From Nostoc sp. CCY 9925 (GTDB lineage Bacteria; Cyanobacteriota; Cyanobacteriia; Cyanobacteriales; Nostocaceae): a stretch of DNA of 32,000 nt. The first letter of the stretch is position 1; the number at the start of each line of letters is the position of its first letter. Below are positions 13,962 through 32,000 of this stretch, one piece after another. The notes under the pieces are model-generated. The model was not told the DNA's origin. It made no database searches and saw only the letters and a list, made by a program, of their open reading frames with translations. A program made the translations under genes and the position numbers. The stretch covers positions 49,138-81,137 of the forward strand of contig NZ_CAWUDO010000034.1 in assembly GCF_963920935.1 (NCBI RefSeq), read 5' to 3'.

Positions 13962-16900
13962 ATGACGCAGTATCAGTATCAAGTCGGGGGTAGTCTGCCT
14001 CAAGATGCGCTAACCTACGTTAGAAGGCAAGCTGACTATGATTTTTATGAAGGCTTAAAAGCTGGGGAGTTTTGTTATGTTCTCAACTCACGGCAGATGG
14101 GGAAATCTAGTTTGCGCGTGCAGGTGATGAAGCAATTGCAGGAAGAGGGTTTTGCCTGTGCTGCTATTGATATTACAGCGATCGGCACGGCAGATATTAC
14201 CCCAGAAGAGTGGTACGCGGGGGTAATTGATACGCTGGTGGGGAGTTTTAATATTTACAATGAGTTTGATTTAGATACTTGGTGGACTGAGAACGGGTTG
14301 CTGTCACCAGTGCAGCGGTTTAGCAAGTTTATTGAAACGGTTTTACTCAAAATAATTACTGCAAAGATAGTTATTTTTATTGATGAAATAGATAGTATTC
14401 TCAGCCTTTCCTTCAACTTGGATGACTTTTTTGCTGTGATTCGGGATTGCTATAACCGACGCGCTGACTATCCTGATTATCATCGTCTCACCTTTGCTTT
14501 GATTGGGGTGTCTACGCCTTCAGATTTGATTCAAGACAAACGCCGCACACCTTTTAATATTGGACGGGCAATTGATTTAACTGGCTTTCAACTCCAAGAG
14601 GCGCAACCCTTAGCCCAAGGATTAGCAGAGGTGGGCGATTCTCAAGAATTGATGCGGGTGGTGCTGGAATGGACTGGGGGACAGCCGTTTTTGACACAAA
14701 AAGTCTGTAAATTGCTGGTGCAGAGAGGACTGGAGACTAGGGATTGGGGACTAGCGACTGGGGACTGGGTAGAAGAGTTGTTACGCCAGCGGATTATTGA
14801 GAATTGGGAAGCGCAGGATGAGCCGGAGCATTTGAAGACGATTCGTGACAGAATCATGCGGAGTGGGGAACAGCGGACTGGGCGATTGTTGGGGTTGTGT
14901 CAGCAAATTTCGCAGCAGGGAGAGATAGTTGCTGATGACAGTCCCGAACAAACGGAACTGCGGCTGACGGGGTTGGTGGTGAAGCGGGAGGGAAAGCTGC
15001 GAATTTATAACCGCATTTACGCAGAGGTGTTTAAGCAGGAATGGAGTGAGAAAATCTTAGCAAAGTTGCGTCCTTACTCTGGTGCATTAAATGCTTGGGT
15101 TGAGTCGGAACGTCAAGATGAGTCGCGCTTGTTGCGGGGAAAGGCTTTGCAAGATGCTCAAGAATGGACAGTCGGTAAAAGTTTAAGCGATTTGGATTAT
15201 CAGTTTTTAGCTGCTAGCCAAGAATTAGAAAAGCGCGATGTGCAGAAACGGCTGGAGGCAGAGGAACAGGCAAGGCAGGTATTAGCAAAGGCAAACCATA
15301 AAGCTAATCAGCGGATTCAGATTGGCTCTGTGGTGCTAGGGTTGGCTGTAGTGGGGGTGATAGCTTCGTTAATATTGGCTCAATATCAATTGGGGCAGGC
15401 GCGGCAAGCACAAGCTGATGTTAACAAGGCAGAATCTGACCGCAAACAAGCAATAGCCGATCAGCAGCAAGCCCTCGAACGGGTAAAAAAGGCAGAATCT
15501 GACGGTAAACAAGCAATAGCTGATGCTAATAAGGCTAAGAAACAACAGGAGCAAGCCCTAGCACGGGCAAAAAAAACTGATGACGATGCAAAAAAAACTC
15601 GAACTGAAGCACAACAATCCGTTTTAGCAGCGCAGTCTAAGAGTAAAATCGCCCGCGAACAGCTACAAAAGGCACTCAAAGCAACAGAACTGGCAGAACG
15701 AAAAAAACAAAAAGCAGAGGCATCTCAAAAACAGGCAGAAGCAAAAACACAGATTACACGGGAAGGTGCAAAACTGGAAGGGTTATTTGTCCAAGCTTTA
15801 GCACAATTTGAGTTGGATCGGGTAAAAGCTTTGCTAGCAGCAATAAAATACGGAAATGATTTCAAAGCCTTACTAGAGAAAAATCATCTGCAAACACTCG
15901 ACTTTGAAGCTAATCCAGTGCTAGCTTTACAAATCATCTTTGAAAATATGCCGCAAGTGCTAAGGCATCAGTATCCGGTTACCAGCGCCAGTTTTAGCCC
16001 TGATGGTCAGTATATTATCACTACCTCCAGTGACAATGTTGGTCACTTATGGAAAATGGGACGGCAAATTTACAGCTTAAAAGGTCATCAAGGTATTGTC
16101 TACAATGCCAGTTTCAGCCCTGATGGAAAATACATTGTCACAACTTCATCTGATAAGACCGCTAGAGTTTGGGACTTGACAGGACAGCAAATTTCCATCC
16201 TCAAAGGGCATGAGGGCATGGTCTGGAGTGCCAATTTTAGCCCTGATGGAAAATACATTGTCACAACCTCATCTGATAAGACCGCCCGAGTTTGGGACTT
16301 GACAGGACGGCAAATTTCTATCCTCAAAGGGCATGAGGGCATGGTCTGGAGTGCCAATTTTAGCCCTGATGGAAAATACATTGTCACAGCTTCCGGTGAC
16401 AAGACTGCTCGAGTTTGGGACGAGTTGACGGGAAAGAAAATTGCTTTGTTTCGAGAGCATAAGAGCGCCGTCTATAGTGCCAGTTTTAGCCCAGACGGAA
16501 AATCTATCGTTACAGCTTCCGGTGACAAAACCGTACAGAAATGGGAATGGAAGCAATACCTGCAAGAAAAGGAAGATCCACAGACACCATCTAAGGAAAG
16601 CGAAGAAAAAAAATGGGGAATTACACTTGATGATATTGTCTGGAGCGCCAGTTTTAGCACTGATGGAGAGCGCATTATCACTGCCTCCCGCGACGGTACT
16701 GCCCGAGTGTGGGACTTGACAGGAAAGGAGATTACTACTTTGAAAGGGCATCATGGCACGGTTTGGAGTGCTAGTTTTAACCGCCATGGGCAACGCATTG
16801 TCACAGCCTCATCTGATAAGACTGCTTTGGTTTGGTTGCAGCAAGAACAGAATGCTTTAAATAACTATCTCAGTAGTGCTAATGATGAATCCAAGAAAGA

Positions 16901-17690
16901 GAACACTTTTTTAAATGACAAAATTGTCAAAGTAGAAACTTTAGAAAAACTATTAAATCAGAGTTGTGAATGGTTGCAGGGCTATTTACCATATGCAGCT
17001 GATATGAGTAATGGCGACGTGAGCGTTCGAGTTAGCCAAAGCCAAAATCGGATGCAAGAAGTTCGTCAAATCTGCGGATTTGCCTCAGAAATAGTACCTT
17101 CTCAAACATCAACTACTACAGTGAGTAAGCCTTCTAAGACCGGAATTGTAGTAGTTATTGACCCTGGACATGGCATGACCCCAGACACGGGTTCGAGAGG
17201 CATTTATGAACTGCGAGAAGAGGATGTAGTTCTACCTATTAGCAAAAAAATAGCAGAGATTTTAGAGCAAAGTGGTGTGTCGGCAGTACTAACACGGGAT
17301 GCAGAATATGTCTCGTCTAGCGTCACAGACAGCCTCTCCTATAGAGTAGAAATGGCAAATCGAGTTAGCGCAACCTTGTTTATTAGCGTTCACGCAAATG
17401 TATTCAACGGACAAGCTAATGGTATTGAAATATATGCTACTTCAGATGATAGTAAGCGTCTAGCTGAAATAGTTCTTGATAAAATTATTAAGGTTAGTGG
17501 CTTATCTAACAGGGGAGTAAAAAATACTGGTTTTTATATTTTAAAGAAAAACACTATCCCAGCTATTTCAGTACTAACAGGTTTTATCGATAATGCAAAA
17601 GATGTTGCTGTATTAACTAATCCAGATTCACAAAATAAGATGGCCGAAGCGATCGCTCGTGGTATTCTCCAGTATTTAGGAGAAAAGTAG
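13962..17690 (+). CDS. Multidomain protein: AAA_35-type STAND-like NTPase, one hydrophobic helix, K/A/Q-rich coiled coil, 7-bladed WD40 propeller, and an Amidase_3-type N-acetylmuramoyl-L-alanine amidase
   Basis: [24 protein letters not shown]...[12 protein letters not shown] (Walker A at nt 14100-14108) and [10 protein letters not shown] (Walker B). Hydrophobic helix [24 protein letters not shown] (nt ~15318-15383). Seven SPDG...(S/T)(S/A)S(D/G)(K/N)T(A)RVWD WD40 units (nt ~15960-16835). C-terminal domain VVVIDPGHG...LFISVHANV...GIEIY...[12 protein letters not shown]...[13 protein letters not shown]. Confidence 0.85.
16116..16361. repeat. Two near-identical 123-bp tandem units (41 aa each) inside the WD40 region
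   Basis: 16116-16238 and 16239-16361 both encode [23 protein letters not shown](Q/R)[18 protein letters not shown] counted only about six nucleotide differences by eye. Confidence 0.9.
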
Positions 17691-19742: not shown

Positions 19743-21587
19743 TTAGATATCTTGCTGATATTCTTCTAATAATTGCGGGATGTAATCATAGCCATCTACA
19801 CCAATAAGGGCAATGATTTTAGAGCGATGTTGCTGTAAGAATTTTTGGAAAACTTCTGCTCCTATTTGTCCCTGTAAAATTGTCAGTAACCCTGCTGGTT
19901 GACGCCATTCACGAGAAGCAATTTGGTTCAAAAGATACATTCCTAAACTACCTGTGTAAATAGTTTTCTCGGCATTTTGTAAATGATAATAAGCTTCTCC
20001 TAAATAAGCTAAATTCCGTCCTTGGAGATACAAATCACCGGAAAATTGCGCTATTTTAAAACCTTCTTCCAGGTATTTAATTGCTGTTTCGTGTTGTCCA
20101 ATTACTAAATAAGCAATTCCTAAGCTGCTGACACATAAGGCTTTACTTGGAATATCGCCTAATTTTTCTGATAACTTTAAACCTTGTTCCAAATAGTTAA
20201 TCGCTGATTCATAGGTTTCTGGTTCTATGTTTTCCAGTTGCTGAGCCTGCATGACTTCGCTGTAGCCTAAATTTACCAGCGCGTTTGCTTCTCCTGTTTT
20301 ATCGCCTGCTTGCCGACTCAGTATTAATCCTCGTTGACTATAGTTAATTGCCTCGGCATAATTTTGCTGTTGTACGTAGGTACGGCTGAGGTGGTTGAGA
20401 TTGGCAATTTCACAGGGGCGATCGCCTGCACTCCTAGCTATCTCCAAGGCCTGCTGGTGAAAGTCTACAGAGCGCTGATATTGTCCCAAAGCACGCTGAG
20501 AATAACCTAAAAGTGTCAAAATCCGGGCTTTCTCCTGGGTTCCATCCACAGTTCGCAGTGGTTCATCCAAATAATCTAGAGTGTTGCGGAGATAACTGCC
20601 AGAAAAGGAGGCAAAAATGCCGCCGTAAAGGGGAAAATATGAGCGTTGGGCAAAGGTTCGCAAAATCTGGAGCATAATTTGAGAACAAGCATCGCTATAT
20701 CCTGCACCAATGCTCTGAAAACCGCTTGCTAACTGACTCCAAATCACTGCGAAGGTCAAAAAAGTGGAAATGGACAACCTTGGCCCGGCTTTCACATCGT
20801 AAGCTTGTTGGTCAAACCAGTTTATTAAGCCCCGTTGCAAATATTGTAAAATCAACGCCATTTCTACCCAATCTCTGAGGGTGATACCCCGCTGCTGTTC
20901 GGCAAATTGAATTGCAGATTCCTCCATCGCTAAGGTGCGAAACAGCGCTTGGGGTAACTCACTATTAACTTGCTTCGCCCAACTCGCCCAAGGGCCGCGT
21001 TCACCTGGTACACCGCCAAATCCTAAAGATTCTCTTTGCTCATACATCCAACTGAGCAAATTCTCTTGTAGGTGTTGCCAAGAAGCTAAACCACGGGTAA
21101 TACCTTCAGAAAATTGTTGTAAATCGGCATCTAGCTGGGCAAATTGCTGTAATGATTTTGATAGCTGCTGTAACTGTGGCAAATTTAGCGGATACTTCTG
21201 ATTGGGGTCAGTGACACGGACAAATGCTGCCAGACGCTCATTAGCAGAAGCTGTAGTAATTTCTGTAACTGCAAAAGCGATCGCTTCTGTGGCTTTGTTT
21301 TGCTCTTGCCAGCGTTGCCATTGAGTTTGAATGGTTTTAATGGCTCTCAAACTGCGAGTAGCTTTAGCTTTTTTAAGTTCGTCTTTTTCGCTATCTACTT
21401 GGCTTTGGAGAACATTTAGGCGATCGCTCAAAGCTAGCTCAAACACTTCCCCTGTACCAGAAGTGATGTTTTTAACCAGCATTTGATACACCTGTTCCAC
21501 AGAGCTAATTTTGCCCTTGAGGGTAGTTTCGACAATTTCATCGATTAAGGCAAGATAGCGATCGCGCAATGGCAGAGAGTCTGACAC
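19743..21587 (-). CDS. TPR-repeat protein (helical N-terminal region and a C-terminal array of TPR motifs)
   Basis: 614-aa ORF. The C-terminal ~270 aa show repeated 34-40-aa A/Y/L-patterned units (ALGQYQRSVDFHQQALEIAR, NYAEAINYSQRGLILSR, YESAINYLEQGLKLSEK, HETAIKYLEEGFKIAQ, NAEKTIYTGSLGMYL). Confidence 0.75.
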   Translation of the reverse strand: MSDSLPLRDRYLALIDEIVETTLKGKISSVEQVYQMLVKNITSGTGEVFELALSDRLNVLQSQVDSEKDELKKAKATRSLRAIKTIQTQWQRWQEQNKATEAIAFAVTEITTASANERLAAFVRVTDPNQKYPLNLPQLQQLSKSLQQFAQLDADLQQFSEGITRGLASWQHLQENLLSWMYEQRESLGFGGVPGERGPWASWAKQVNSELPQALFRTLAMEESAIQFAEQQRGITLRDWVEMALILQYLQRGLINWFDQQAYDVKAGPRLSISTFLTFAVIWSQLASGFQSIGAGYSDACSQIMLQILRTFAQRSYFPLYGGIFASFSGSYLRNTLDYLDEPLRTVDGTQEKARILTLLGYSQRALGQYQRSVDFHQQALEIARSAGDRPCEIANLNHLSRTYVQQQNYAEAINYSQRGLILSRQAGDKTGEANALVNLGYSEVMQAQQLENIEPETYESAINYLEQGLKLSEKLGDIPSKALCVSSLGIAYLVIGQHETAIKYLEEGFKIAQFSGDLYLQGRNLAYLGEAYYHLQNAEKTIYTGSLGMYLLNQIASREWRQPAGLLTILQGQIGAEVFQKFLQQHRSKIIALIGVDGYDYIPQLLEEYQQDI

Positions 21588-21697: not shown

Positions 21698-22990
21698 CTA
21701 ATTAATTCCTTTTAATAGATAAGTCATCATTTCTCCTTTACCTTTAACTTTAATTAAACCTCGTTCTTCCAATAGATATTTATGTTTTAGAAGCTGATAA
21801 CTTGCTTCACAAACTTGGATACTACCAGCTATGCCGTGTGATTCCATGCGACTAGCTGTATTGACTGTATCTCCCCAAAGGTCGTAGGCGAACTTTTTCA
21901 AACCAATTACTCCTGCTACTACTGGACCTGTGCTAATGCCGATGCGAATGCGAAAAGATTGGTTATTTTCTTCATTAAACTGAGCTACAGCATTTTGCAT
22001 ATCCAACGCCATGTTAGCTATGGCGATCGCATGATTATTAGATTGATTTGGCAACCCAGCAACGGCCATATATGCATCGCCAATCGTCTTGATTTTTTCC
22101 ACTCCATGACGTTCTGCTAACTGGTCAAATAAACAGAATATTGTATTTAATAAATCAACTAATTCCGCAGGAGATGTCCTAGCTGAAAGTTCTGTAAAAC
22201 CAACAATATCAGCAAATAATACAGTAACTTCCAGAAAACTATCAGCAATAGTTGTAGGCTGTTGTTTTAATTGTTCGGCAATCATCGCTGGCAAAATATT
22301 TAGTAGCAGCCTTTCTGATTTTTGCTGGGCTACCTCCATTGCTTTACGGGCGTCGAATTCATTTTTTTGTAATCGTTCATATAAATAAACAGAAAAAACA
22401 CAAATTATGCAAGTCCAAAAAAAATATATGCCGCTTTCAACATAATGAGCTAAGGGATTTTCTAGTGTCGGTTTATATAATGTATATAAAACTAGATAGC
22501 AGAAAAGTGTCCCAATTTGCGATCCTAAATGCATCCACCATTTTACTGGTATCAGTGTAGCTTGAGTTAAAAACATTAAATTCCAGAGATTGTTTGTCGG
22601 TTCAAAATCATTAAATAGCAGCGCTATATCAATTTGAACAACACAAGTTACAGACCAGCATAAGCTTAAAAAAATTAAATCTGGATGACGGCGGCCTATG
22701 GAATTTTTACATAAAGCCCAACAAATAAAAATGAATAATTCAACTATAAAACCAATCTTAAAAGCGTATATTTTGCCTTCTACCTGTGAATTTATCCAAA
22801 GGAAAAAAGCGATTAAAGTCAAACCAGCAATCAGCATAATCTGAGCCTGCAATTGTAGTCGCTTGAGCAGGAAGCGCTGTCGCTGTTCTTTGTAGGATTT
22901 GTCAAAGTTATTGCTTAATTGCCAATGGGGCATCCCTTGACTCATGAGCGCATCTAGTTGAGTTTTGTCAGAGTTATTTGGATGAATCAT
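21698..22990 (-). CDS. Membrane-anchored class III adenylate/guanylate cyclase
   Basis: The N-terminal ~220 aa are polytopic and hydrophobic. The C-terminal CHD domain reads VTVLFADIVGFTELS...KIKTIGDAYMAVAGLP...IRIGISTGPVVAGVIG...YDLWGDTVNTASRMES. Confidence 0.9.
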   Translation of the reverse strand: MIHPNNSDKTQLDALMSQGMPHWQLSNNFDKSYKEQRQRFLLKRLQLQAQIMLIAGLTLIAFFLWINSQVEGKIYAFKIGFIVELFIFICWALCKNSIGRRHPDLIFLSLCWSVTCVVQIDIALLFNDFEPTNNLWNLMFLTQATLIPVKWWMHLGSQIGTLFCYLVLYTLYKPTLENPLAHYVESGIYFFWTCIICVFSVYLYERLQKNEFDARKAMEVAQQKSERLLLNILPAMIAEQLKQQPTTIADSFLEVTVLFADIVGFTELSARTSPAELVDLLNTIFCLFDQLAERHGVEKIKTIGDAYMAVAGLPNQSNNHAIAIANMALDMQNAVAQFNEENNQSFRIRIGISTGPVVAGVIGLKKFAYDLWGDTVNTASRMESHGIAGSIQVCEASYQLLKHKYLLEERGLIKVKGKGEMMTYLLKGIN

Positions 22991-23027: not shown

Positions 23028-23120
23028 ATGGGGCATAGGGCATGGGGCATAGAGAATAGAAATAATTACCGATGCTCAATGCTCAATGCTCAATGTCCAA
23101 TGCCCAATGCCCAATGCCCA
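23028..23120. repeat. Palindromic STRR arrays (ATGGGGC/ATAGGGC facing ATGCTCA/ATGCCCA heptamers)
   Basis: atggggcatagggcatggggcat ... atgctcaatgctcaatgctcaatgtccaatgcccaatgcccaatgccca. GGGCAT is the reverse complement of ATGCCC, so the two arrays can pair. Confidence 0.85.
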
Positions 23121-23126
23121 ACAATT

Positions 23127-24698
23127 ATGGCTCGTACCCCAACATTAACTTTCGATCGCGGCACACTCATTTTGCATCCACCACCACGTGGCAAAGCTTG
23201 GATGGACTACGCCACATGGGATGATAGAGTTGAAAAATTCCGCATTCCAGCGATTAGATACCGATCGCTGGTGGAAGCACTACAAGCGGAAGATGTGAAC
23301 TTTATCGATGAAGCAAAGGAGTTTTATCCTCTAGATTTGGTTTCTAGTTTGGAAATGGAACCTTATCCTCATCAGAGTGAAGCCCTAGCAGCTTGGAAAG
23401 TAGCGGGTAGGCAGGGGGTGGTTGTGCTTCCCACGGCGGCGGGAAAGACTTATTTAGCACAAATGGCGATGCAGTCAACCCCCCGCACGACGCTGATTGT
23501 AGTGCCAACTTTGGATTTAATGCATCAGTGGTATGCACATTTAGTGGCGGCTTTCCCGGATGCTGAGGTGGGATTGCTGGGGGGTGGTTCGCGGGATAAG
23601 ACAGCGATTCTCGTGGCGACTTACGATAGTGCCGCAATTCACGCGGAAGCTATCGGAAATCAATATGCTTTGATTGTTTTTGATGAATGTCATCACTTAC
23701 CAACAGATTTTAATCGGGTGATTGCGGAATATGCGATCGCACCCTATCGCTTGGGACTTTCTGCAACACCAGAACGCACCGATGGCAAACATGCTGATTT
23801 AAATATTCTCATTGGTCAAGAAGTATATCGCAAACGCGCTGAAGATTTAGCGGGGAAGGCGTTAGCAGAACACGAAATTGTCCAAATTAAGGTCAAGTTA
23901 TCGCAAAATGAACGAGAAAGATACAACCAATTAATTCAAACTCGCAACGACTTTTTAAAGCAATCTCGTATTTCTTTGGGCAGTCTTCAAGGTTGGCAAA
24001 TGTTCGTGCAAATGAGTGCGCGATCGCAAGCTGGACGTAGAGCTATGTTAGCGCATCGCGAAGCCAAAGATATTGCTTTGGGTACTGATGGGAAGTTGCG
24101 AATTTTAGCTAATTTATTGGCAGAACATTATCCGGCAAGAATTTTAATTTTTACTGCTGATAATTCTACGGTTTATCGCATTTCTCAAGAGTTACTAATT
24201 CCGGCAATTACCCATCAAACGCCTGTGAAGGAACGCCATGAAATATTAACAAAGTTTCGTGAGGGTACGTATAACACTTTGGTTGCTTCTCATGTGTTGA
24301 ATGAAGGTGTTGATGTGCCGGCGGCTTCTGTGGCAATTATTTTATCGGGAACGGGTTCGGCTAGAGAGTATACTCAGCGCTTGGGGAGGATTTTACGGAA
24401 GGGAAATATTGAGAATAAACAGGCGATTTTGTATGAGGTGGTGGCGGAGGATACGAGTGAAGAGGGGACTTCGGCGAGGCGGAGAGGGGAGAGTGGGGGA
24501 CAAGGGGAGAAGAAGGGGAATTTGCAGGTTGTGTATGGGAGTGGGAAGGGAAGGAGTTTGAAGGCGGCGGAACAGTTAGAAATTAATTATTCAACTGGAA
24601 GTTCAAAATCTAAAATCAAAAATTCAGATGTTACCGACAGATTTACTGATGCATCGCCAAAACGGGGAAGAGATCATCCCGAAGAGACTGAAGATTGA
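23127..24698 (+). CDS. XPB/Ssl2-like superfamily-2 DNA helicase (DEAD/DEAH box, ResIII-type)
   Basis: The start MARTPTLTFDRGTLIL resembles an XPB-type N-terminal domain. Helicase motif I is LPTAAGKT, motif II is FDECHH, motif III is LSATPER and motif VI is YTQRLGRILR. The C-terminal tail is low-complexity and G/E/R/S-rich. I chose the start at ATG 23127, because upstream codons are read from the heptamer array. Confidence 0.85.
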   Translation: MARTPTLTFDRGTLILHPPPRGKAWMDYATWDDRVEKFRIPAIRYRSLVEALQAEDVNFIDEAKEFYPLDLVSSLEMEPYPHQSEALAAWKVAGRQGVVVLPTAAGKTYLAQMAMQSTPRTTLIVVPTLDLMHQWYAHLVAAFPDAEVGLLGGGSRDKTAILVATYDSAAIHAEAIGNQYALIVFDECHHLPTDFNRVIAEYAIAPYRLGLSATPERTDGKHADLNILIGQEVYRKRAEDLAGKALAEHEIVQIKVKLSQNERERYNQLIQTRNDFLKQSRISLGSLQGWQMFVQMSARSQAGRRAMLAHREAKDIALGTDGKLRILANLLAEHYPARILIFTADNSTVYRISQELLIPAITHQTPVKERHEILTKFREGTYNTLVASHVLNEGVDVPAASVAIILSGTGSAREYTQRLGRILRKGNIENKQAILYEVVAEDTSEEGTSARRRGESGGQGEKKGNLQVVYGSGKGRSLKAAEQLEINYSTGSSKSKIKNSDVTDRFTDASPKRGRDHPEETED

Positions 24699-25842
24699 TC
24701 GGCAAACTTCGGAGTTGGCGATTGAGTTAATTAATTATTTTCAATCAGCAGTGGGGAAAACTCAGGGTATGCTTGAGCGACAACTGACTGATTTTGAAGG
24801 AGATTCGACAGATTATCGAGTGAAGCGGGGATTAGCTTATATTCTCAAAAGCAGTTTTTGTACTTTTGAGGTGGTTAGTCCTTTAGAACCACAAATGTTA
24901 AGAGAACGGGTGTTTTCTCTGGCTGCAAAGTCTGTTTCTAGTCGGGAATCCACACAAGTTACTTTGACGAAAGTTGCTGATGAGTTAACTCAAGAACTTG
25001 AACGGGAAGTGTTACCAGAACAGGTTCGCAATGGATTATATGCTGATTTATCTGAGAATAAAATTTTGACGGTTTTTGATGCACCAACAGCGCCAGATTT
25101 GTTAAATCGCTATAACTTATCTCAGGTGCAGGGTGTGTTTTATAAAGCAAGTCAGTTGGTGTTAAATGCTCATCGGAATGTTCCGGGAGAATATAAGCTG
25201 TTATTTCGTTATTTAAAGTTGTTTCAATTGATGGCTTATATTGAAGGTGATGCTGACCACGGATTTACAATTACAATAGATGGTCCGACGAGTTTGTTTA
25301 ATCCTAGTACGCGATATGGCTTGGCGATCGCTAAACTCATTCCCGCTTTACTTCACGTTACAAAATGGAGTCTTTCTTCAATTCTCCAAACCCGTGACGT
25401 TTATACAAATACTTGGAAAACTGGACGTTTTACTCTGAATTCCGAATGTGGTTTAGTATCTCATTATCCACCAGGAAAGCCTTACGATAGTATGCTAGAA
25501 GCATCCTTCGCTGATAAATGGGATGCCTTGAAAAGTGGTTGGGCTTTAGAGAGAGAAGTTGATTTGATACCAATTCCTGGTAGTGTGATGATTCCTGATT
25601 TTCGCTTAGTGCATCCTGATGGACGCACTTTCTTATTAGAAATTGTTGGTTATTGGCGTCCAGAATATTTACAAAAGAAGTTTTCTCAGGTGCGGCGTGC
25701 TGGACGAGATGATTTGATTTTGGCTATTTCCGAACGACTTAATTTAGAAAAGGCGGGAGTAAAATTAAATGATGTCCCCGCCAGAATTGTTTGGTTTAAA
25801 GATAAATTATTGCCAAAAGCTGTCTTAGCTGTGATGGATTGA
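24628..25842 (+). CDS. DUF790/Bax1-family nuclease (partner of XPB-like helicases)
   Basis: It starts MLPTDLLMHRQNGEEIIPKRL and continues DYRVKRGLAYIL. The C-terminal nuclease-like core reads MIPDFRLVHPDGRTFLLEIVGYWRPEYL. The gene overlaps the helicase 3' end by 71 nt. Confidence 0.8.
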   Translation: MLPTDLLMHRQNGEEIIPKRLKIDRQTSELAIELINYFQSAVGKTQGMLERQLTDFEGDSTDYRVKRGLAYILKSSFCTFEVVSPLEPQMLRERVFSLAAKSVSSRESTQVTLTKVADELTQELEREVLPEQVRNGLYADLSENKILTVFDAPTAPDLLNRYNLSQVQGVFYKASQLVLNAHRNVPGEYKLLFRYLKLFQLMAYIEGDADHGFTITIDGPTSLFNPSTRYGLAIAKLIPALLHVTKWSLSSILQTRDVYTNTWKTGRFTLNSECGLVSHYPPGKPYDSMLEASFADKWDALKSGWALEREVDLIPIPGSVMIPDFRLVHPDGRTFLLEIVGYWRPEYLQKKFSQVRRAGRDDLILAISERLNLEKAGVKLNDVPARIVWFKDKLLPKAVLAVMD

Positions 25843-25966: not shown

Positions 25967-26203
25967 ATGAAAGCTATAGAAACAATTGCTACAGTTACCA
26001 AAGATGGTAAGATTACAGCGCAGTTACCATTGGATATTCCAGAGGGTGAGCATCAGGTGGTAATAGTAATTGATGAAAAGCCTTTGGCTAAACAAGAACA
26101 GAACAAACAAAAGAAAGCGCCTCTCAAATTTTCCGCCTATCCTGTAGGATTAGTCTCGGAAAGTTTAACCTTCCGCAGAGAAGACCTTTATGCAAACGAC
26201 TAA
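25967..26203 (+). CDS. Small antitoxin-like protein (VapB-position partner of the PIN toxin)
   Basis: 78 aa. Its stop overlaps the start of the PIN gene by 14 nt. The N-terminal beta-rich segment KAIETIATVTKDGKITAQLPLDIPEGEHQVVIVI is followed by a charged tail. Confidence 0.7.
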   Translation: MKAIETIATVTKDGKITAQLPLDIPEGEHQVVIVIDEKPLAKQEQNKQKKAPLKFSAYPVGLVSESLTFRREDLYAND

Positions 26204-26639
26204 TAACTCTGTTTTCATCGATACAAATATTTTAGTTTATGCAAATTTAGCCTTGTCACCATTTCATGTACAAGCTAAAGAACGACTTCAAGCATTTACA
26301 GAACAAGGTATTGATTTATGGATTAGTCGCCAAACTTTGAGAGAATATTTGGCAGCCATGACAAGACGAGGCGACTTAACTGGGAACATTCCTATTGCAT
26401 CTTTAGTGGCAGATGTACAGTATTTTGCTAGTTATTTTCGCTTGGTTGAAGATAATTTACTCGTGACAGAAAGTTTACTAACACTTATGGAGGAAATTCC
26501 TAGCGGTGGTAGGCAAGTTCATGATGCAAATATTGTTGCGACGATGCTAGTTTATGGCATTCCTCAATTATCCACTCACAACACAGGTGATTTTGCTGGA
26601 TTTTCAAGATTAATTACTGTGTTGCCATTACAAAATTAG
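26190..26639 (+). CDS. vapC: PIN-domain ribonuclease toxin (VapC-like)
   Basis: 149 aa with PIN acidic residues in the expected contexts: VFIDTNILVYA (N-terminal Asp), LREYLAAMT, and VHDANIVATM (C-terminal Asp). Confidence 0.8.
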   Translation: MQTTNNSVFIDTNILVYANLALSPFHVQAKERLQAFTEQGIDLWISRQTLREYLAAMTRRGDLTGNIPIASLVADVQYFASYFRLVEDNLLVTESLLTLMEEIPSGGRQVHDANIVATMLVYGIPQLSTHNTGDFAGFSRLITVLPLQN

Positions 26640-26664: not shown

Positions 26665-27360
26665 TCACGAACTCCAAACACTTCTGCGTTGCCAATATTG
26701 GGCGACTCTTTTTTCCCACTCTTCCCAGTAATCTTTAATCATTGCTGGTTCAAACCAAAATACCTCGGCTGGCATCTCTGGAATTGCTACTACCAACAAA
26801 GCATGATTTAGCTGAATGCCATAATCTCGATAATAGTTGTTAATTGCTCCAATGTATGCTGTAAGTTGCAGTGGATGTTCGTATAAACGCTCAATTGAAC
26901 CTTTAGGTTTGTCTGCTGTTTTCCACTCGCAAATACAGGGGATGCCTTGATAACTGGCAATACAATCCACTTTGCCAGAATAGCTCAAATCGTAATGAAA
27001 AACGGAGCCTTCTACGAGTCTCACTGTGTCGATTTCTTCTAAAACTGGCTTAATACTTTCCCAATAAGGGCGACTACCTTCGGGACAAACAGGATTTTGT
27101 CCAAGGAGGTAGCGCTCAATTTGTTTGTGTGTTTGGGTTCCCCGACGACTGGCATTTGTAGATATGCGGTTGGCTTCTTCTGTTCCAACACGCGTTTTCC
27201 AATTTAATAATCTGTCTCTATCTTCTTGGGGTTTGGTGACATTAAGTATTGTGGTGACGCTAGGCAAGCGGTTTCCTTTGGCGTCTACATAATATTGTTT
27301 ACCATTTTCTCTCAGGGATTTACTATTAATTTGAGGTAGCAGTTGGGTATCAAATTGCAT
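26665..27360 (-). CDS. PD-(D/E)XK (RecB/Cas4-like fold) nuclease family protein
   Basis: 231 aa. The motif order is typical of RecB-type nucleases: RGTQTHKQIE, then GKVDCIA, then CEWKT, then QLTAYIGAI. There is no Cys cluster, so it is not a canonical Cas4. Confidence 0.65.
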   Translation of the reverse strand: MQFDTQLLPQINSKSLRENGKQYYVDAKGNRLPSVTTILNVTKPQEDRDRLLNWKTRVGTEEANRISTNASRRGTQTHKQIERYLLGQNPVCPEGSRPYWESIKPVLEEIDTVRLVEGSVFHYDLSYSGKVDCIASYQGIPCICEWKTADKPKGSIERLYEHPLQLTAYIGAINNYYRDYGIQLNHALLVVAIPEMPAEVFWFEPAMIKDYWEEWEKRVAQYWQRRSVWSS

Positions 27361-27880
27361 CAGTTTTTGTGTTGGCTTTGTGATTCTCTTTTGTAGGCAA
27401 GTGAATAAAACCCCATTCCATTGTAAGAAATAGGCTTGAAGATAAGCGTTTGTAAGATTGCAAAATGTGACTTTTACTTCAAATCATCCGCGTCTATCTC
27501 CTTTGATTCCAGCAATTTTTGCATAGGCGTAGCACATCGGATACATCGCTCACTTAAAATGTATTAAACTCAAGTTTGTAACTCGGCGATATTCCGTCTG
27601 TTGCATCACCCGCTATAGGTTAGAAACCTATGGCTAATAGCTAAAGTCTTCTCAAGAAGACTGAGAGTGGATTTGTGCTAAGCTAATGAGCATTTAAGTT
27701 GCATAAAACCAGGGCTGGAGCCGCTTCCTACAAGCAAATCACTCTGGAAAAATGAATGACGATTAGCTTATCGGCCTTGCAATTGATTGCAAGGTGGGAT
27801 ATGGGGTTAATTACTAAATGTGTGTACTTTCCGAAATAGACACAATTGCATTTGTATCTTCAAGTGCAATGAACTATTTC

Positions 27881-28348
27881 ATGATTATGGAACCTGTAAC
27901 ACTAACGGCAGCTGCAATCACAACTTTAATTTTCTCAGAAGCTTTGAAAGAAGGTGGGAAAGCTTTAGGAAAAAGTGTTTCAGAAAAAGTTGCTCAACTA
28001 TTGAGTGCTATTCGTGAAAAGTTTCAAACTGTGCAAACTGAAGGGCTACTGACACGAGCGCAAGAAAATCCAACAGATAAGAATACCTCAAAGTTCCAAG
28101 ATGAATTGGAAACGCAAATGGAGGAAGATAAAGTCTTTGCTAACCGCTTGGAAGAATTAATGACGCAGCTTAAATCGAATGAAACGATTAATCAAATTGT
28201 TCTCAAGGGAGTTAGGGTAACGGGTAAGGCTAAAGTCGGCAATATAGATTTAGTAGCTACAAGAGACGGTTCTGTGAATCAAGAAGCGCTAGTTGATTCT
28301 CAATTTAGCGACGATCTTGACGTTGGTAATGTGAACATCAAAGCCTAA
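27881..28348 (+). CDS. Small helical protein of unknown function, translationally coupled to the NB-ARC/TPR gene
   Basis: The ORF is open from 27818. Likely starts are ATG 27881 or 27887 (M-I-MEPVTLTAAAITTLIFSEALKEGGKALGK). A charged helical middle is followed by a G/V/N-rich C-terminal segment. The stop at 28346-28348 lies 4 nt before the next ATG. Confidence 0.6.
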   Translation: MIMEPVTLTAAAITTLIFSEALKEGGKALGKSVSEKVAQLLSAIREKFQTVQTEGLLTRAQENPTDKNTSKFQDELETQMEEDKVFANRLEELMTQLKSNETINQIVLKGVRVTGKAKVGNIDLVATRDGSVNQEALVDSQFSDDLDVGNVNIKA

Positions 28349-28352
28349 AATC

Positions 28353-31300
28353 ATGAACGATCGCCCTAACTTTGAGAAAATACAGCAGAGTGCGTTTAAC
28401 AATGTTCAAGCCCACGATATCACAGTTGGCAGCATTACCCAAATTGTAAACCAGGGTAAAACTCCGAAAGCAAAAGGTATTCCGCAAAATTTACCCATGA
28501 GTGGAGTGGTGAAGTTTGTTGGACGTGAAGCTGAGCTGCAAAACCTCCACCAGATGTTACAGGAAAATAATCAGGTGGCGATTGCAGCGATCGCTGGCAT
28601 GGGTGGTGTTGGTAAAACAGAACTGGCCTTACAATATGCAATAGCTCACCGTGAAAACTACAAAGGTGGAATTTGCTGGTTGCTGGCAAAGACTGGAGAT
28701 GTCGGCATTCAAGTTGTGCAGTTTGCGAGAACGCAACTTGACTTAAACCCACCAGAAGATTTAACAGAAGATCCTCAAAATAAATTACTCGCCCAAGTAG
28801 AATATTGCTTTCGCCATTGGCGTGAGGGTGATGTGCTGCTAGTGTTGGATGATGTCGCGGTATATAAGGAAGTCAAGCCTTATTTACCATCGTCATCTCC
28901 ACGGTTTAAAGTGCTGATGACTACGCGATTACGTTTAGGAGCATCCATTAAGCAATTATCTCTGGATGTATTGCAACCAGAAGCAGCCCTAGAGTTATTC
29001 CAGTCACTCATTGGCGCAGAACGGTTACAAAAAGAGCTTGATGTTGCTAAGTCTCTGTGTAAATGGCTGGGATATTTGCCTTTAGGGTTGGAATTAGTAG
29101 GGCGGTATCTATGTCAAGAAGGGCAACAAGACCTCTCCTTAGTAAAAATGTTGCAACGCTTGGAGAAAAAGCGACTAGAACAAACCGCCCTTGTTGAGCC
29201 AGAAGACGATATGACAGCACATCTGGGCGTGCAAGCAGCTTTTGAGTTGAGTTGGCAGGAATTAAAAGACACAGATAAGCAAATGGGTTGTTTGCTAAGT
29301 TTATTTGCCGCCGCGCCTATACCTTGGAATTTAGTAGAACAATGTTTACCAGAGGAAGACGAGGAAGATTTAGAGGAAATCAGAAATAATAAACTCCTGA
29401 AACTGCATTTGCTCCAGCGTCAAGGTGAGGAAACCTACCAATTGCATCCCCTACTGCGGGAGTTTTTCCAATATAAGCTTACAGATTTAGAACAGGCAGA
29501 GGAATTAAAGCGTTCCGTTTGCAAGGTAATGGTAGGAATTGCCGAAAATATTCCTTATACTCCCACCCTTGAGCAAATCAACGCTGTTTCCCCAGCTATA
29601 CCTCATATAGCTGAAGTAGCGAATCATCTCATTCAATACATCAGCGATGATGATTTAATTTGGCCATTTATCGGTAACGCTTGGTTTTACAATGGTCAGG
29701 CATTGTATGAAAAAGTAGCACCTTGGTTAGAGGAGTGTCTAGAAGTCACTAAACAGCGCTTAGGAGAAGAACATCCAGATGTTGCCGCTACCCTCAACAA
29801 CCTGGCACAACTCTACTACTCCCAAGGAAAATACAGCGAAGCTAAACCCCTGTACCTGCAAGCTTTAGAACTATGGCGACGCTTGCTGGGAGAGGAACAT
29901 CCATCTGTTGCCACTACCCTCAACAACTTGGGACAACTCTACTACTCCCAAGGAAAATACAGCGAAGCTGAAACCCTGTACTTACAAGCTTTGGAACTAT
30001 GGCGACGCCTGCTGGGAGAGGAAGATCCATTTGTTGCCACTACCCTCAACAACTTGGGACAACTCTACTACTCCCAAGGAAAATACAGCGAAGCTGAAAC
30101 CCTGTACTTACAAGCTTTGGAACTATGGCGACGCCTGCTGGGAGAGGAAGATCCATTTGTTGCCACTACCCTCAACAACTTGGGACAACTCTACTACTCC
30201 CAAGGAAGATACAGCGAAGCCGAATCCCTGTATTTGCAAGCTTTGGAACTAACGCGACGCCTGTTGGGAGAAGAACATCCTAATGTTGCACTTAACCTCA
30301 ATAATCTAGCAGCACTCTACTACTCCCAAGGTAGATACAGCGAACCTGAAACCCTAAACCTGCAAGCTTTGAAAATATGGCGACGCCTGCTAGGTGAGGA
30401 ACATCCTAATGTTGCACTTAATCTCAACAACCTGGCTTTACTCTACTACTCCCAAGGAAGATACAGCGAAGCCGAACCTCTGTACCTGCAAGCTTTGGAA
30501 ATATGGCGACGCCTGCTGGGAGAGGAACATCCTAATGTTGCACTTAATCTTAACAACCTGGCTTTACTCTATTACTCCCAAGAAAGATACACCGAAGCCG
30601 AACCTCTGTATCTGCAAGCTTTAGAACTATGGCGACGCTTGCTGGGAGAGGAACACCCTAATGTTGCACTTAATCTTAGCAACCTGGCTTTACTCTACTA
30701 CTCCCAAGAAAGATACAGCGAAGCTGAACGCCTGAACCTGCAAGCTTTGGAACTAAGACGACGCCTGCTGAGTGAGGAACACCCTGATGTTGCACAAAGC
30801 CTCAACAACTTAGCGGGACTTTACGAATCTCAAAAAAGATACAGCGAAGCTGAACACATGAATCTGCAAGCTTTGGCACTCACACGCAAGTTGCTGGGAG
30901 AGGAACACCCTAATGTCGCCACTAGCCTCAACAACCTAGCGGGACTCTACGAATCGCAAAAAAGATACAGTGAAGCTGAACCCTTGTACATTCAAGCTTT
31001 AGCACTCACACGCAAGCTGCTGGGAGAGGAACACCCAGATGTCGCCACTAGCTTCAAGAACCTAGGATTACTCTACTACTTCCAAGACAGATACAGCGAA
31101 GCTGAACCCCTTTTAATCGAAGCTTTGGCACTCAGGCGCAAGTTGCTGGGAGAGGAACACCCAGATGTCGCCACTAGCCTCAACAACTTAGCGTACGTCT
31201 ACGAATTCCAAGACAGATACAGCGAAGCTGAACCTCTGTACATTCAAGCTTTAGCAATCAGACGCAAGTTGCTGGGAGAGGAACACCCAGATGTCGCCAC

Positions 31301-32000
31301 TAGCCTCAAGAACCTAGGATTACTCTACTACTTCCAAGGCAGATACAGCGAAGCTGAACCTCTGTACATCCAAGCTTTGGCACTCACACGCAAATTGCTA
31401 GGAGAGGAACACCCAGATGTCGCCACTAGCCTCAACAGCTTAGGATTACTCTACTATTTCCAAAACAGATACAGCGAAGCTGAACCTCTGTACATTCAAG
31501 CTTTAGCAATCAGACGCAAGTTGCTGCCAGAAGAACACTCAGATGTCGCCATTAGCCTTAACAACTTAGGATTACTCTACTATTCCCAAGGCGGATACAG
31601 CGAAGCTGAACCTCTTTTAATCCAAGCTTTAGCAATCAGGCGCAAATTGCTGCCAGAGGAACACCTAGATGTCGCCGCTAGCCTCAACAACTTAGGATTA
31701 CTCTACTATTCCCAAGCCAGATACAGTGAAGCTGAACCTCTTTTAATCCAAGCTTTAGCACTCAGGCGCAAGTTGCTGCCAGAAGAACACTCAGATGTCG
31801 CCACTAGCCTCAACAACTTAGGATTACTCTACTATTCCCAGGGCAGATATAGCGAAGCTGAATCTTTGTACATCAAAGCTTTAGATATTTGTGAGCAACA
31901 GTTAGGAGTAAATCACTCAACTACTGTAATTATTCAAAAAAATTTAGCAGATTTGCGCGTAGGCGAAGCCCGCCGCAGGCATCGCCCCACTTCACAATAG
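28353..32000 (+). CDS. NLR-like STAND protein: NB-ARC NTPase followed by 17 tandem 42-aa TPR units (TPR_10/12 type)
   Basis: Walker A IAGMGGVGKTELA (nt 28596-28619), Walker B VLLVLDDV, KVLMTTR, and a GLPL-type motif LGYLPLGLELVGRYL. From ~nt 29755 come 17 units of LLGEEHP.VA.SLNNLA.LY.SQGRYSEAEPLY.QAL...R. The stop TAG is at 31998-32000, the last triplet of the window. Confidence 0.9.
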   Translation: MNDRPNFEKIQQSAFNNVQAHDITVGSITQIVNQGKTPKAKGIPQNLPMSGVVKFVGREAELQNLHQMLQENNQVAIAAIAGMGGVGKTELALQYAIAHRENYKGGICWLLAKTGDVGIQVVQFARTQLDLNPPEDLTEDPQNKLLAQVEYCFRHWREGDVLLVLDDVAVYKEVKPYLPSSSPRFKVLMTTRLRLGASIKQLSLDVLQPEAALELFQSLIGAERLQKELDVAKSLCKWLGYLPLGLELVGRYLCQEGQQDLSLVKMLQRLEKKRLEQTALVEPEDDMTAHLGVQAAFELSWQELKDTDKQMGCLLSLFAAAPIPWNLVEQCLPEEDEEDLEEIRNNKLLKLHLLQRQGEETYQLHPLLREFFQYKLTDLEQAEELKRSVCKVMVGIAENIPYTPTLEQINAVSPAIPHIAEVANHLIQYISDDDLIWPFIGNAWFYNGQALYEKVAPWLEECLEVTKQRLGEEHPDVAATLNNLAQLYYSQGKYSEAKPLYLQALELWRRLLGEEHPSVATTLNNLGQLYYSQGKYSEAETLYLQALELWRRLLGEEDPFVATTLNNLGQLYYSQGKYSEAETLYLQALELWRRLLGEEDPFVATTLNNLGQLYYSQGRYSEAESLYLQALELTRRLLGEEHPNVALNLNNLAALYYSQGRYSEPETLNLQALKIWRRLLGEEHPNVALNLNNLALLYYSQGRYSEAEPLYLQALEIWRRLLGEEHPNVALNLNNLALLYYSQERYTEAEPLYLQALELWRRLLGEEHPNVALNLSNLALLYYSQERYSEAERLNLQALELRRRLLSEEHPDVAQSLNNLAGLYESQKRYSEAEHMNLQALALTRKLLGEEHPNVATSLNNLAGLYESQKRYSEAEPLYIQALALTRKLLGEEHPDVATSFKNLGLLYYFQDRYSEAEPLLIEALALRRKLLGEEHPDVATSLNNLAYVYEFQDRYSEAEPLYIQALAIRRKLLGEEHPDVATSLKNLGLLYYFQGRYSEAEPLYIQALALTRKLLGEEHPDVATSLNSLGLLYYFQNRYSEAEPLYIQALAIRRKLLPEEHSDVAISLNNLGLLYYSQGGYSEAEPLLIQALAIRRKLLPEEHLDVAASLNNLGLLYYSQARYSEAEPLLIQALALRRKLLPEEHSDVATSLNNLGLLYYSQGRYSEAESLYIKALDICEQQLGVNHSTTVIIQKNLADLRVGEARRRHRPTSQ
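29755..31900. repeat. Array of 17 tandem 126-bp repeats (the TPR units at DNA level), including one perfect 126-bp duplication
   Basis: 29907-30032 and 30033-30158 are identical base for base. Neighbouring units are highly similar in blocks. Confidence 0.95.

Follow-up and report, generated by a model that had tools for sequence, protein, structure and literature searches.

Gene pairs in which a small Bell-domain protein is encoded beside a NOD-like receptor (NLR; NOD, nucleotide-binding oligomerization domain) were defined by Dyrka et al. (2020; bioRxiv 10.1101/2020.01.06.895854; J Mol Biol 432:6005). As described there, the Bell proteins are about 120–150 aa in length, with a hydrophobic N-terminal helix and an acidic residue at position 2–3, and terminate in a bacterial amyloid signalling sequence (BASS), a motif of ∼25 aa that recurs at the N terminus of the adjacent NB-ARC or NACHT protein, itself equipped with tetratricopeptide (TPR) or WD repeats. 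The published pairs are co-linear in 91 % of cases and lie ≤10 bp apart in 57 %, and they occur only in multicellular Actinobacteria and Cyanobacteria. On average, BASS motifs are rich in Q, N, G, V and I and poor in P, as well as in K and L, and the class termed BASS4 is often repeated on the Bell side, as in HET-s (Dyrka et al., 2020). Another bacterial system, Bab/Agp of Escherichia coli ECOR25, acts against phage by abortive infection and is the only bacterial case in which amyloid-dependent cell death has been proven in vivo (Ibarlosa et al., 2024; bioRxiv 10.1101/2024.11.07.622273). Bell/BASS-NLR pairs represent the bacterial counterpart of the amyloid-controlled cell-death signalling of fungi and animals, and are of interest for the deep origins of NLR immunity. 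Here we analyse a gene pair located at the end of a 32,000 nt stretch of DNA from Nostoc sp. CCY 9925 (contig NZ_CAWUDO010000034.1, positions 49,138–81,137 of the forward strand; hereafter the window, whose own numbering is used throughout), and compare it with these systems.

Identification of the gene pair

The pair comprises an effector gene (27887–28348, + strand), specifying a 153 aa Bell-domain protein with a C-terminal BASS4 motif, and, directly downstream, the gene for an NLR-type STAND NTPase (signal transduction ATPase with numerous domains) of 1215 aa (28353–32000, + strand), in which a BASS4 motif is followed first by an NB-ARC domain and then by a TPR array, and whose stop codon forms the final triplet of the window. 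This is almost certainly a Bell-BASS4/NB-ARC-TPR gene pair of the published class. The effector was delineated by ORF calling and by its homologues, among them the small protein of the related locus L006, with which it shares 83 % identity. Locus L006 could be equated, by organism and by the exact text and coordinates of its motif (aa 96–122, KSNETINQIVLKGVEVKGKAKVGDINL), with OYD94771.1/OYD94772.1 of Nostoc sp. 210A, a pair assigned to bass_04, cluster cya_02, in Supplementary Table 2 of Dyrka et al. (2020). Two more of the related loci, L021 (OYE01065.1/OYE01066.1) and L028 (BAZ20404.1/BAZ20405.1), stand under the same class and cluster. The published BASS4 motif of OYD94771.1 covers the same stretch as the first of two repeats in the tail of the window's effector, and the motif at the N terminus of the window's NLR is the same as that of the published NLR-side entries for BASS4.

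Features shared with the Bell/BASS4 pairs of that study are a Bell protein, here of 153 aa, whose helix 1 is hydrophobic and whose second residue is acidic; a BASS4 motif present in two copies at the C terminus of this protein and in one at the N terminus of the adjacent NB-ARC/TPR protein; and a co-linear arrangement with a gap of <10 bp in a filamentous cyanobacterial host. The NLR motif of the window is a variant, ARDITVGSITQ, with one residue deleted relative to the GGNITVGNITQ form, and the effector tail ends in ..GNVNIKA rather than ..GNLNQEA; no qualitative difference from the published pairs was found. The exact locus may be absent from the 2020 table. The family, the motif class and the orthologue in L006 have all been published, and the window's pair is a typical member. 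By the terms that the initial annotation had itself set, namely that the pair should not belong to an already named family, the novelty that it had proposed must therefore be given up, and as a discovery the locus adds nothing new. It is a clean and typical example nonetheless, in which the effector is complete and its motif duplicated, the NB-ARC protein is likewise complete, with 17 TPR units, and the junction measures 4 nt; as such it is a possible test case for BASS4 and for cyanobacterial Bell/NLR pairs.

A motif shared by the effector tail and the NLR

The N-terminal motif of the NLRs in this family follows the pattern Q..hh.NV.A.[GR][ND]I.h.G[DN]I.Q.h, and the effector tails carry the same pattern in two pseudo-repeats. 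In the window, pseudo-repeat 1 (R1) occupies aa 101–124 of the effector (INQIVLKGVRVTGKAKVGNIDLVA; 28187–28258, + strand), as placed by a position-specific scoring matrix (PSSM), by profile alignment with hhalign and by the published motif stretch. Pseudo-repeat 2 (R2) follows at aa 130–153 (VNQEALVDSQFSDDLDVGNVNIKA; 28274–28345, + strand), and was placed by hhalign, by its in-register score and by co-variation. The NLR-side copy, at aa 10–33 (IQQSAFNNVQAHDITVGSITQIVN; 28380–28451, + strand), is the top match in the window to the NLR-side profile; over aa 10–32 it reads IQQSAFNNVQAHDITVGSITQIV.

The PSSM was built solely from the NLR-side motifs of other loci. Its best site in the small protein lies at aa 102–125 and scores −0.8, a value reached by five of 5000 shuffled sequences (−31 ± 6.7), and this result persists when the entire subfamily of the window is left out. 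When all six frames of the 32 kb window were scanned (21,803 positions), the two highest-scoring sites were the NLR N terminus (10.0) and R1 of the effector tail (−0.8), with the best unrelated site at −17.4. Global alignment with hhalign, in one register throughout, matched R1 to the NLR motif with P=2.3e-4, R2 to the NLR motif with P=9.2e-5, and the two repeats to each other with P=2.1e-6. Scored in register against the NLR motif of their own locus, R1 and R2 reached 20 and 26, respectively, as compared with −18 ± 10.5 for shuffled sequences, two and none of which, out of 5000, scored as high. Moreover, R2 co-varies with its partner: over 41 unique loci, with phylogeny uncontrolled, it scored 26.6 against its own partner motif and 24.0 against those of other partners (0 of 5000 permutations), and the window's own NLR ranked second of 41. 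The tail is also distinct in composition, with N, Q, G, V and I making up 0.49 of its residues vs 0.23 of aa 1–100, and with no proline. The initial annotation had suggested a detached effector or adaptor delivered in trans. Its idea of an effector apart from the NLR is supported, with the small protein functionally tied to the NLR, and PSSM, hhalign and co-variation bear out the motif shared by the two.

The effector and its family

The longest reading of the small ORF begins at 27818, with further in-frame ATG codons at 27869, 27881 and 27887, and ends at a TAA stop codon (28346–28348). As nearly all of 135 homologues are 150–153 aa long and begin with ME[PL], we place the start at 27887 (MEPVTLT..., 153 aa). 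The initial annotation had chosen 27881, two codons upstream, and hence a protein of ∼155 aa; the ORF stands, with its start moved. A database entry that matches exactly (P0001, 176 aa) has the upstream ATG at 27818 as its annotated start, and because the 23 additional residues (27818–27886) are not conserved in homologues, this gene call is probably over-extended. In an alignment of 30 homologues, E2, A8, L14, F16, S17, E18 and A19 are nearly invariant; a KEGGK motif and the tail are likewise conserved, and the C terminus is complete, with the conserved ending ..GN[VL]N[IQ][KE]A.

A scan taking one genome per species returned 63 related loci, cyanobacterial without exception, from Nostoc, Nodularia, Anabaena, Scytonema, Tolypothrix, Brasilonema, Fischerella, Pseudanabaena, Microcystis and other genera; many of the closest relatives are lichen cyanobionts (Peltigera Nostoc). 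Truncated or interrupted copies of the effector gene, of 51–145 aa and with the tail lost, were seen at L017, L050, L053, L055, L056, L059, L062 and L063, and have the appearance of modules in decay or of breaks in assembly. At L055, a motif-bearing NB-ARC gene persists downstream of the broken copy.

With regard to structure, the protein opens with helix 1 (MEPVTLTAAAITTLIFS; 27887–27937, + strand), recognized from hydropathy, conservation and an AlphaFold2 (AF2) model. It is hydrophobic and has an acidic second residue (a 'MEPIS-type' N terminus), and its mean Kyte–Doolittle hydropathy (aa 1–17) is +1.31, vs −0.89 for aa 18–100. The Bell protein signature of an N-terminal hydrophobic α-helix with a negative charge at position 2 or 3 is thus present (E2, helix 3–15). 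As no Pfam model exists for the Bell domain, membership was judged through homology to listed Bell proteins. We regard helix 1 as a putative membrane-inserting or pore-lining helix; the initial annotation had compared it to the membrane-targeting helices of HeLo, MLKL and CC domains, and it is indeed of that kind as the literature defines it. In the AF2 model, built from an input of 30 homologues, helices span residues 3–15, 18–21, 29–48, 53–60, 64–80, 82–96 and 99–106, forming a Bell-type helical globular domain (aa 1–106; 27887–28204, + strand). The predicted local distance difference test (pLDDT) score is 67–94 over aa 1–100 and ∼50 in the tail (aa 110–153), where short strands are modelled. 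Such a model fits a globular Bell domain followed by a flexible, amyloid-prone tail.

Neither Pfam, PADLOC nor NCBIfam assigned the small protein to a family at a meaningful score. The NCBIfam model for GvpT matched it (E=1.6e-4) at 22 bits, far under the curated cut-off of 80 bits; some database sources name it a 'Fis family transcriptional regulator', although Pfam finds no helix–turn–helix or Fis domain; and matches to Sigma70_ner and NFACT-C were dismissed as low-complexity or helical noise. Taken at face value, the first two of these labels would make the small protein a gas-vesicle accessory protein of the GvpT/GvpP kind, or a regulator, with no relation to the NLR and only incidentally adjacent to it. 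Given the shortfall in bits and the missing domain, and since conservation of the pair, a shared motif and co-variation would not be expected of chance neighbours, we consider this extremely improbable.

Amyloid signalling as the probable mode of action

The gene pair is likely to constitute a Bell-BASS4/NB-ARC-TPR amyloid-signalling module, a bacterial counterpart of fungal HET-S/NWD2. The full course from ligand to cell death is drawn by analogy, from HET-S/NWD2, from the fibrils and prions of BASS1 and BASS3, and from abortive infection by Bab/Agp; it is the account we favour on balance. In such a scheme, the TPR array would bind a phage-derived or other non-self ligand, upon which oligomerization driven by the NB-ARC domain would gather the N-terminal motifs of several NLRs into a cross-β fold. 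The tail of the Bell protein, with its two repeats, would then be templated on this nucleus, probably forming two rungs as in HET-s, and refolding of the tail would free helix 1 from its helical sheath. Helix 1 would insert into the membrane and the cell would die, a death that would be altruistic within the filament.

A number of observations weigh against this interpretation. The tail and the NLR N terminus of the window are only ∼26 % identical; a pairwise local alignment of the two was not significant (366 of 2000 shuffles were as good), nor was a local HMMER search of the tail with a hidden Markov model of the NLR-side motif (2560 of 3000 decoys as good). For these reasons, the motif call rests on family-level profiles, and the full-length PSSM and global hhalign were used because local scoring is underpowered for a strand motif of 24 residues. 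The 'same flavour' that the initial annotation perceived in the tail and the NLR N terminus is therefore borne out by the full-length profile tests but not by the local ones. R1 shows no co-variation with its partner across the 41 unique loci, and the test for R2 ignores phylogeny; in close relatives, near-identical tails adjoin NLRs of two motif variants (ARDITVG.. and GGNLTTGNITQ); and the tail, unlike the average BASS, shows no depletion of K (0.08) or L (0.08). On the structural side, a Foldseek search of the AF2 model against the PDB, a check that had been proposed for the small protein, gave no significant match (best E=0.42) and none to HeLo, MLKL, CC or Bab; a profile search of PDB sequences with the effector returned nothing relevant, and HeLo and related Pfam models did not match it. 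Kinship in fold with HeLo, MLKL, CC or Bab is accordingly not demonstrated. The defence models of PADLOC match neither the small protein nor the NOD. Finally, published fibril and prion assays cover BASS1, BASS3 and BASS11 only, not BASS4, and the biological function of Bell/NLR pairs 'remains to be elucidated' (Ibarlosa et al., 2024).

Some of these points would equally suit a module of the same composition that is coupled without amyloid, either by stoichiometric docking of β-strands, with the small protein as an adaptor, or with the small protein regulating, inhibiting or chaperoning the NLR. The restriction of the assays to other BASS classes, the low identity between tail repeats and NLR motif, the lack of co-variation in R1 and the absence of a confident AF2 fold for the tail are all in keeping with such coupling. 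Set against it are the length of the motif, its β-propensity, its enrichment in N, Q, G, V and I and its lack of proline, as in HET-s/NWD2, BASS1, BASS3 and BASS11, together with the layout of two repeats vs one and their terminal positions, which match those of the assayed amyloid motifs; in addition, it is not obvious what purpose the conserved hydrophobic helix 1 would serve in a protein that is purely an adaptor or inhibitor. Non-amyloid coupling therefore seems improbable to us, and amyloid signalling remains the preferred explanation.

Junction between the two genes

The effector and NLR ORFs lie on the same strand in different frames, separated by a 4 nt spacer (aatc; 28349–28352, + strand) between the effector stop codon and the ATG of the NLR. 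The initial annotation had reported a small ORF ending 4 nt before an ORF of 1215 aa with NB-ARC and 17 TPR units, and, the start codon aside, these features were confirmed. At 35 of the 63 loci the small ORF is intact and has, directly downstream and in the same orientation, the gene for an NB-ARC protein of the GMGGVGKTEL type with the motif at its N terminus, and at 27 of these 35 the junction consists of a stop codon, 3–4 nt and an ATG, with TAA, TAG and TGA all in use. This junction is shared by Nostoc, Nodularia, Anabaena, Scytonema, Brasilonema, Gloeocapsopsis, Stigonema, Rivularia, Aetokthonos and Drouetiella, and by unclassified Nostocales and Oscillatoriophycideae genomes. Both the arrangement and the presence of the motif in the two partners are thus conserved among filamentous and colonial cyanobacteria. 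No terminator-like site was found between the two genes, and a scan of 27300–28500 for promoters and terminators gave nothing above chance. The two genes are probably borne on one transcript, and their translation is possibly coupled.

Two ORFs set 4 nt apart in different frames might also be the remains of a single-chain NLR whose N-terminal domain was recently detached by a frameshift, as the initial annotation had put forward, and 'all-in-one' Bell-NLR fusions have been reported elsewhere. The proposed check of orthologous loci for fused or separate ORFs speaks otherwise: the junction recurs over many genera and with three stop codons, and keeps the two ORFs separate. The NLR has a conserved N-terminal motif of its own from about residue 10, directly after its Met, and the C terminus of the effector is complete and conserved, so that each gene holds its own motif copy; fusion of the two would place two motif repeats and a third copy in tandem, an arrangement seen in no locus. 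A recent split is thus barely credible, and because stop + 3–4 nt + ATG has been kept in so many loci, we conclude that effector and NLR are separate by long-standing design.

The NLR: NB-ARC domain and TPR array

The NB-ARC domain, the nucleotide-binding oligomerization domain of the NLR, spans aa 59–279 (28527–29189, + strand; Pfam PF00931, E=2.5e-19). All four of the motifs noted initially are present: the Walker A motif GMGGVGKT(ELA) at aa 82, the Walker B motif LLVLDD(V) at 162, LMTTR at 188, and GYLPLGLELVG, of the GLPL type, at 240. The TPR array, the proposed sensor, extends over 29760–31997 (+ strand) and consists of 17 tandem units of 42 aa (aa 470–1183) plus a truncated capping unit, as established from the list of units, Tandem Repeats Finder and Pfam; the earlier count of 17 thus refers to the full units. 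Tandem Repeats Finder gave a period of 126 bp, 16.8 copies and 86 % matches over 29763–31882, Pfam identified 18 stretches of TPR_10 and 16 of TPR_12, and adjacent units are 0.76–0.98 identical at the DNA level. High internal conservation of NLR TPR repeats has already been discussed in the literature. In the close orthologues L003–L009 the NLR measures 398 to 962 aa, vs 1215 aa in the window, a spread that fits repeat-number instability or reshuffling, or else collapse of repeats in metagenome-assembled genomes.

Searched against PADLOC-DB 2.0, the NLR matched no Avs or bNACHT model, and its TPR region matched only the generic models PDLC01169 and PDC-M71B. The NCBIfam model FxSxx_TPR (NF040586) scored 487 against a cut-off of 300, a score that derives from the NB-ARC domain and many TPRs, in four stretches. 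FxSxx-COOH systems comprise a small FxSxx-COOH peptide and a radical-SAM/SPASM partner. No radical-SAM protein is present among the ORFs of the window, and the small protein ends in ..VNIKA, not FxSxx; the FxSxx name would be a mis-assignment inflated by the repeats.

Other partners of the effector family

At four loci, the gene downstream of the effector specifies a protein without a NOD or NTPase domain (L014:6730–8064, L020:6540–8561, L034:6467–8665 and L052:6461–8032). These four share an N-terminal BASS4-like motif, one to four transmembrane-like segments and TPR repeats, which suggests TPR receptors that are anchored in the membrane and coupled to this effector. Partners lacking a NOD were beyond the reach of the 2020 screen, as it covered NB-ARC and NACHT neighbours only. 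Other partners include a NACHT-like protein with several transmembrane-like segments (L039:1145–3205), a 1384 aa protein with NB-ARC, APAF1_C and TPR (L040:6460–10611), proteins of 171 aa in which the BASS4 motif is very strong and known domains are lacking (L015:6461–6973 and L042), and proteins of 655–940 aa for which Pfam gives nothing or HEAT-like repeats only (L043:6471–9119, L051, L054:6541–8505 and L058:5058–7877).

The Bell-BASS4 effector may therefore be a portable executioner module that also plugs into receptors without a NOD. Furthermore, because R2 co-varies with the partner and R1 does not, R2 alone may be matched in specificity to its cognate NLR, with R1 a generic second rung of a HET-s-like, two-rung BASS4 unit. 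Specificity confined to R2 and portability to NOD-less receptors would be modest extensions of the published picture; we put them forward tentatively, as possible but rather unlikely, and they concern the family more than the window's own pair, which is simply a typical member.

Genomic neighbourhood and the nature of the trigger

Upstream of the pair, an XPB-type helicase gene (XPB_DRD, ResIII and Helicase_C by Pfam; 23028–24698, + strand) overlaps by 71 nt with a DUF790 gene (24628–25842, + strand), DUF790 being, as we take it, the Bax1 nuclease family. XPB and DUF790 form a conserved helicase–nuclease pair that is usually linked to repair. The helicase also matches the PbeA models of PADLOC (E=8e-53), probably because the helicase core is common to both, and its N terminus (MGHRAWGIENRNNYRCSMLNAQCPMPNAQCP...) looks like an over-extended start. 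Next comes a VapBC-like pair, formed by a 78 aa protein (25967–26203, + strand) and a PIN-domain gene (26190–26639, + strand) with a 14 nt overlap, and, convergent with it, a PD-(D/E)XK nuclease with weak Cas4-like similarity (26665–27360, − strand). Two STAND/NLR-like genes are found farther away, 10–15 kb upstream of the pair: one of 563 aa with a CHAT caspase-like domain and AAA_35 (12029–13720, + strand), and one of 1242 aa in which AAA_35 and multiple WD40 repeats are joined to a C-terminal Amidase_3 domain (N-acetylmuramoyl-L-alanine amidase; 13962–17690, + strand). The joining of a NOD-WD40 protein with a cell-wall amidase is uncommon as an effector combination. A TPR protein of 614 aa (19743–21587, − strand), a membrane adenylate/guanylate cyclase of 430 aa (21698–22990, − strand) and a 596 aa protein for which Pfam gives a single weak TPR_10 match (7065–8855, − strand) were all devoid of a BASS4-like motif in the six-frame scan. 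Housekeeping genes are also present (Kdp, DegT, a succinyl-CoA-ligase-like pair and Ada), and an Rfam scan of the whole window yielded no RNA family. The view of the initial annotation that this region resembles a defence island is thus only partly upheld: genes of the conflict type do occur (VapBC-like, PD-(D/E)XK, CHAT-AAA_35 and AAA_35-WD40-amidase), but they are interspersed with housekeeping genes, and the helicase–nuclease pair is of a kind usually tied to repair.

This mixed setting has a bearing on what the module responds to, as the same mechanism might be set off by something other than phage, in allorecognition between filaments, in developmental or stress-related cell death, or in encounters with grazers or symbiosis partners. 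Restriction of the family to multicellular or colonial cyanobacteria, the many close relatives from lichens, the role of fungal HET-S in allorecognition rather than in direct antiviral killing, the lack of a PADLOC match and a neighbourhood that is not a clean defence island would all be compatible with this. Conversely, Bab/Agp, the sole bacterial amyloid-signalling pair tested in vivo, is antiphage; TPR arrays that are internally conserved and variable in copy number fit fast-evolving recognition of non-self; and other conflict-type genes lie nearby. We therefore think a non-phage trigger possible, if rather unlikely, and retain recognition of a phage-derived or other non-self ligand as our working model.

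Comparison with known systems

The arrangement closely parallels that of HET-S/NWD2 of Podospora anserina. Both have adjacent effector and NLR genes, an effector with an N-terminal membrane-targeting helical domain and two pseudo-repeats at its C terminus, a single copy of the motif at the N terminus of the NLR, and repeat arrays of high internal conservation. They differ in that the Bell domain has no detectable sequence or fold similarity to HeLo, in that the motif sequences are unrelated, and in that the host is a bacterium; HET-S consists of the pore-forming HeLo domain and the HRAM amyloid motif, and NWD2 of NACHT and WD40, where the window has NB-ARC and TPR. Compared with Bab/Agp, the window's effector is larger (153 aa) and carries a duplicated BASS4, whereas Bab measures 109 aa, of which the 'Babybell' domain takes up ∼80 aa, and has BASS11 only once; likewise, the sensor in the window is an NB-ARC STAND NTPase, whereas Agp has the layout TPR-GreA/B-C-PIN and no NOD. 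With Avs and other antiviral STAND NTPases, and with bNACHT proteins, the NLR shares the STAND NTPase and a C-terminal repeat sensor. In Avast2 and bNACHT02/11/23, a MEPIS-type N-terminal helix is fused in cis to the receptor, whereas in the window the effector is a separate polypeptide that would be recruited via the shared motif.

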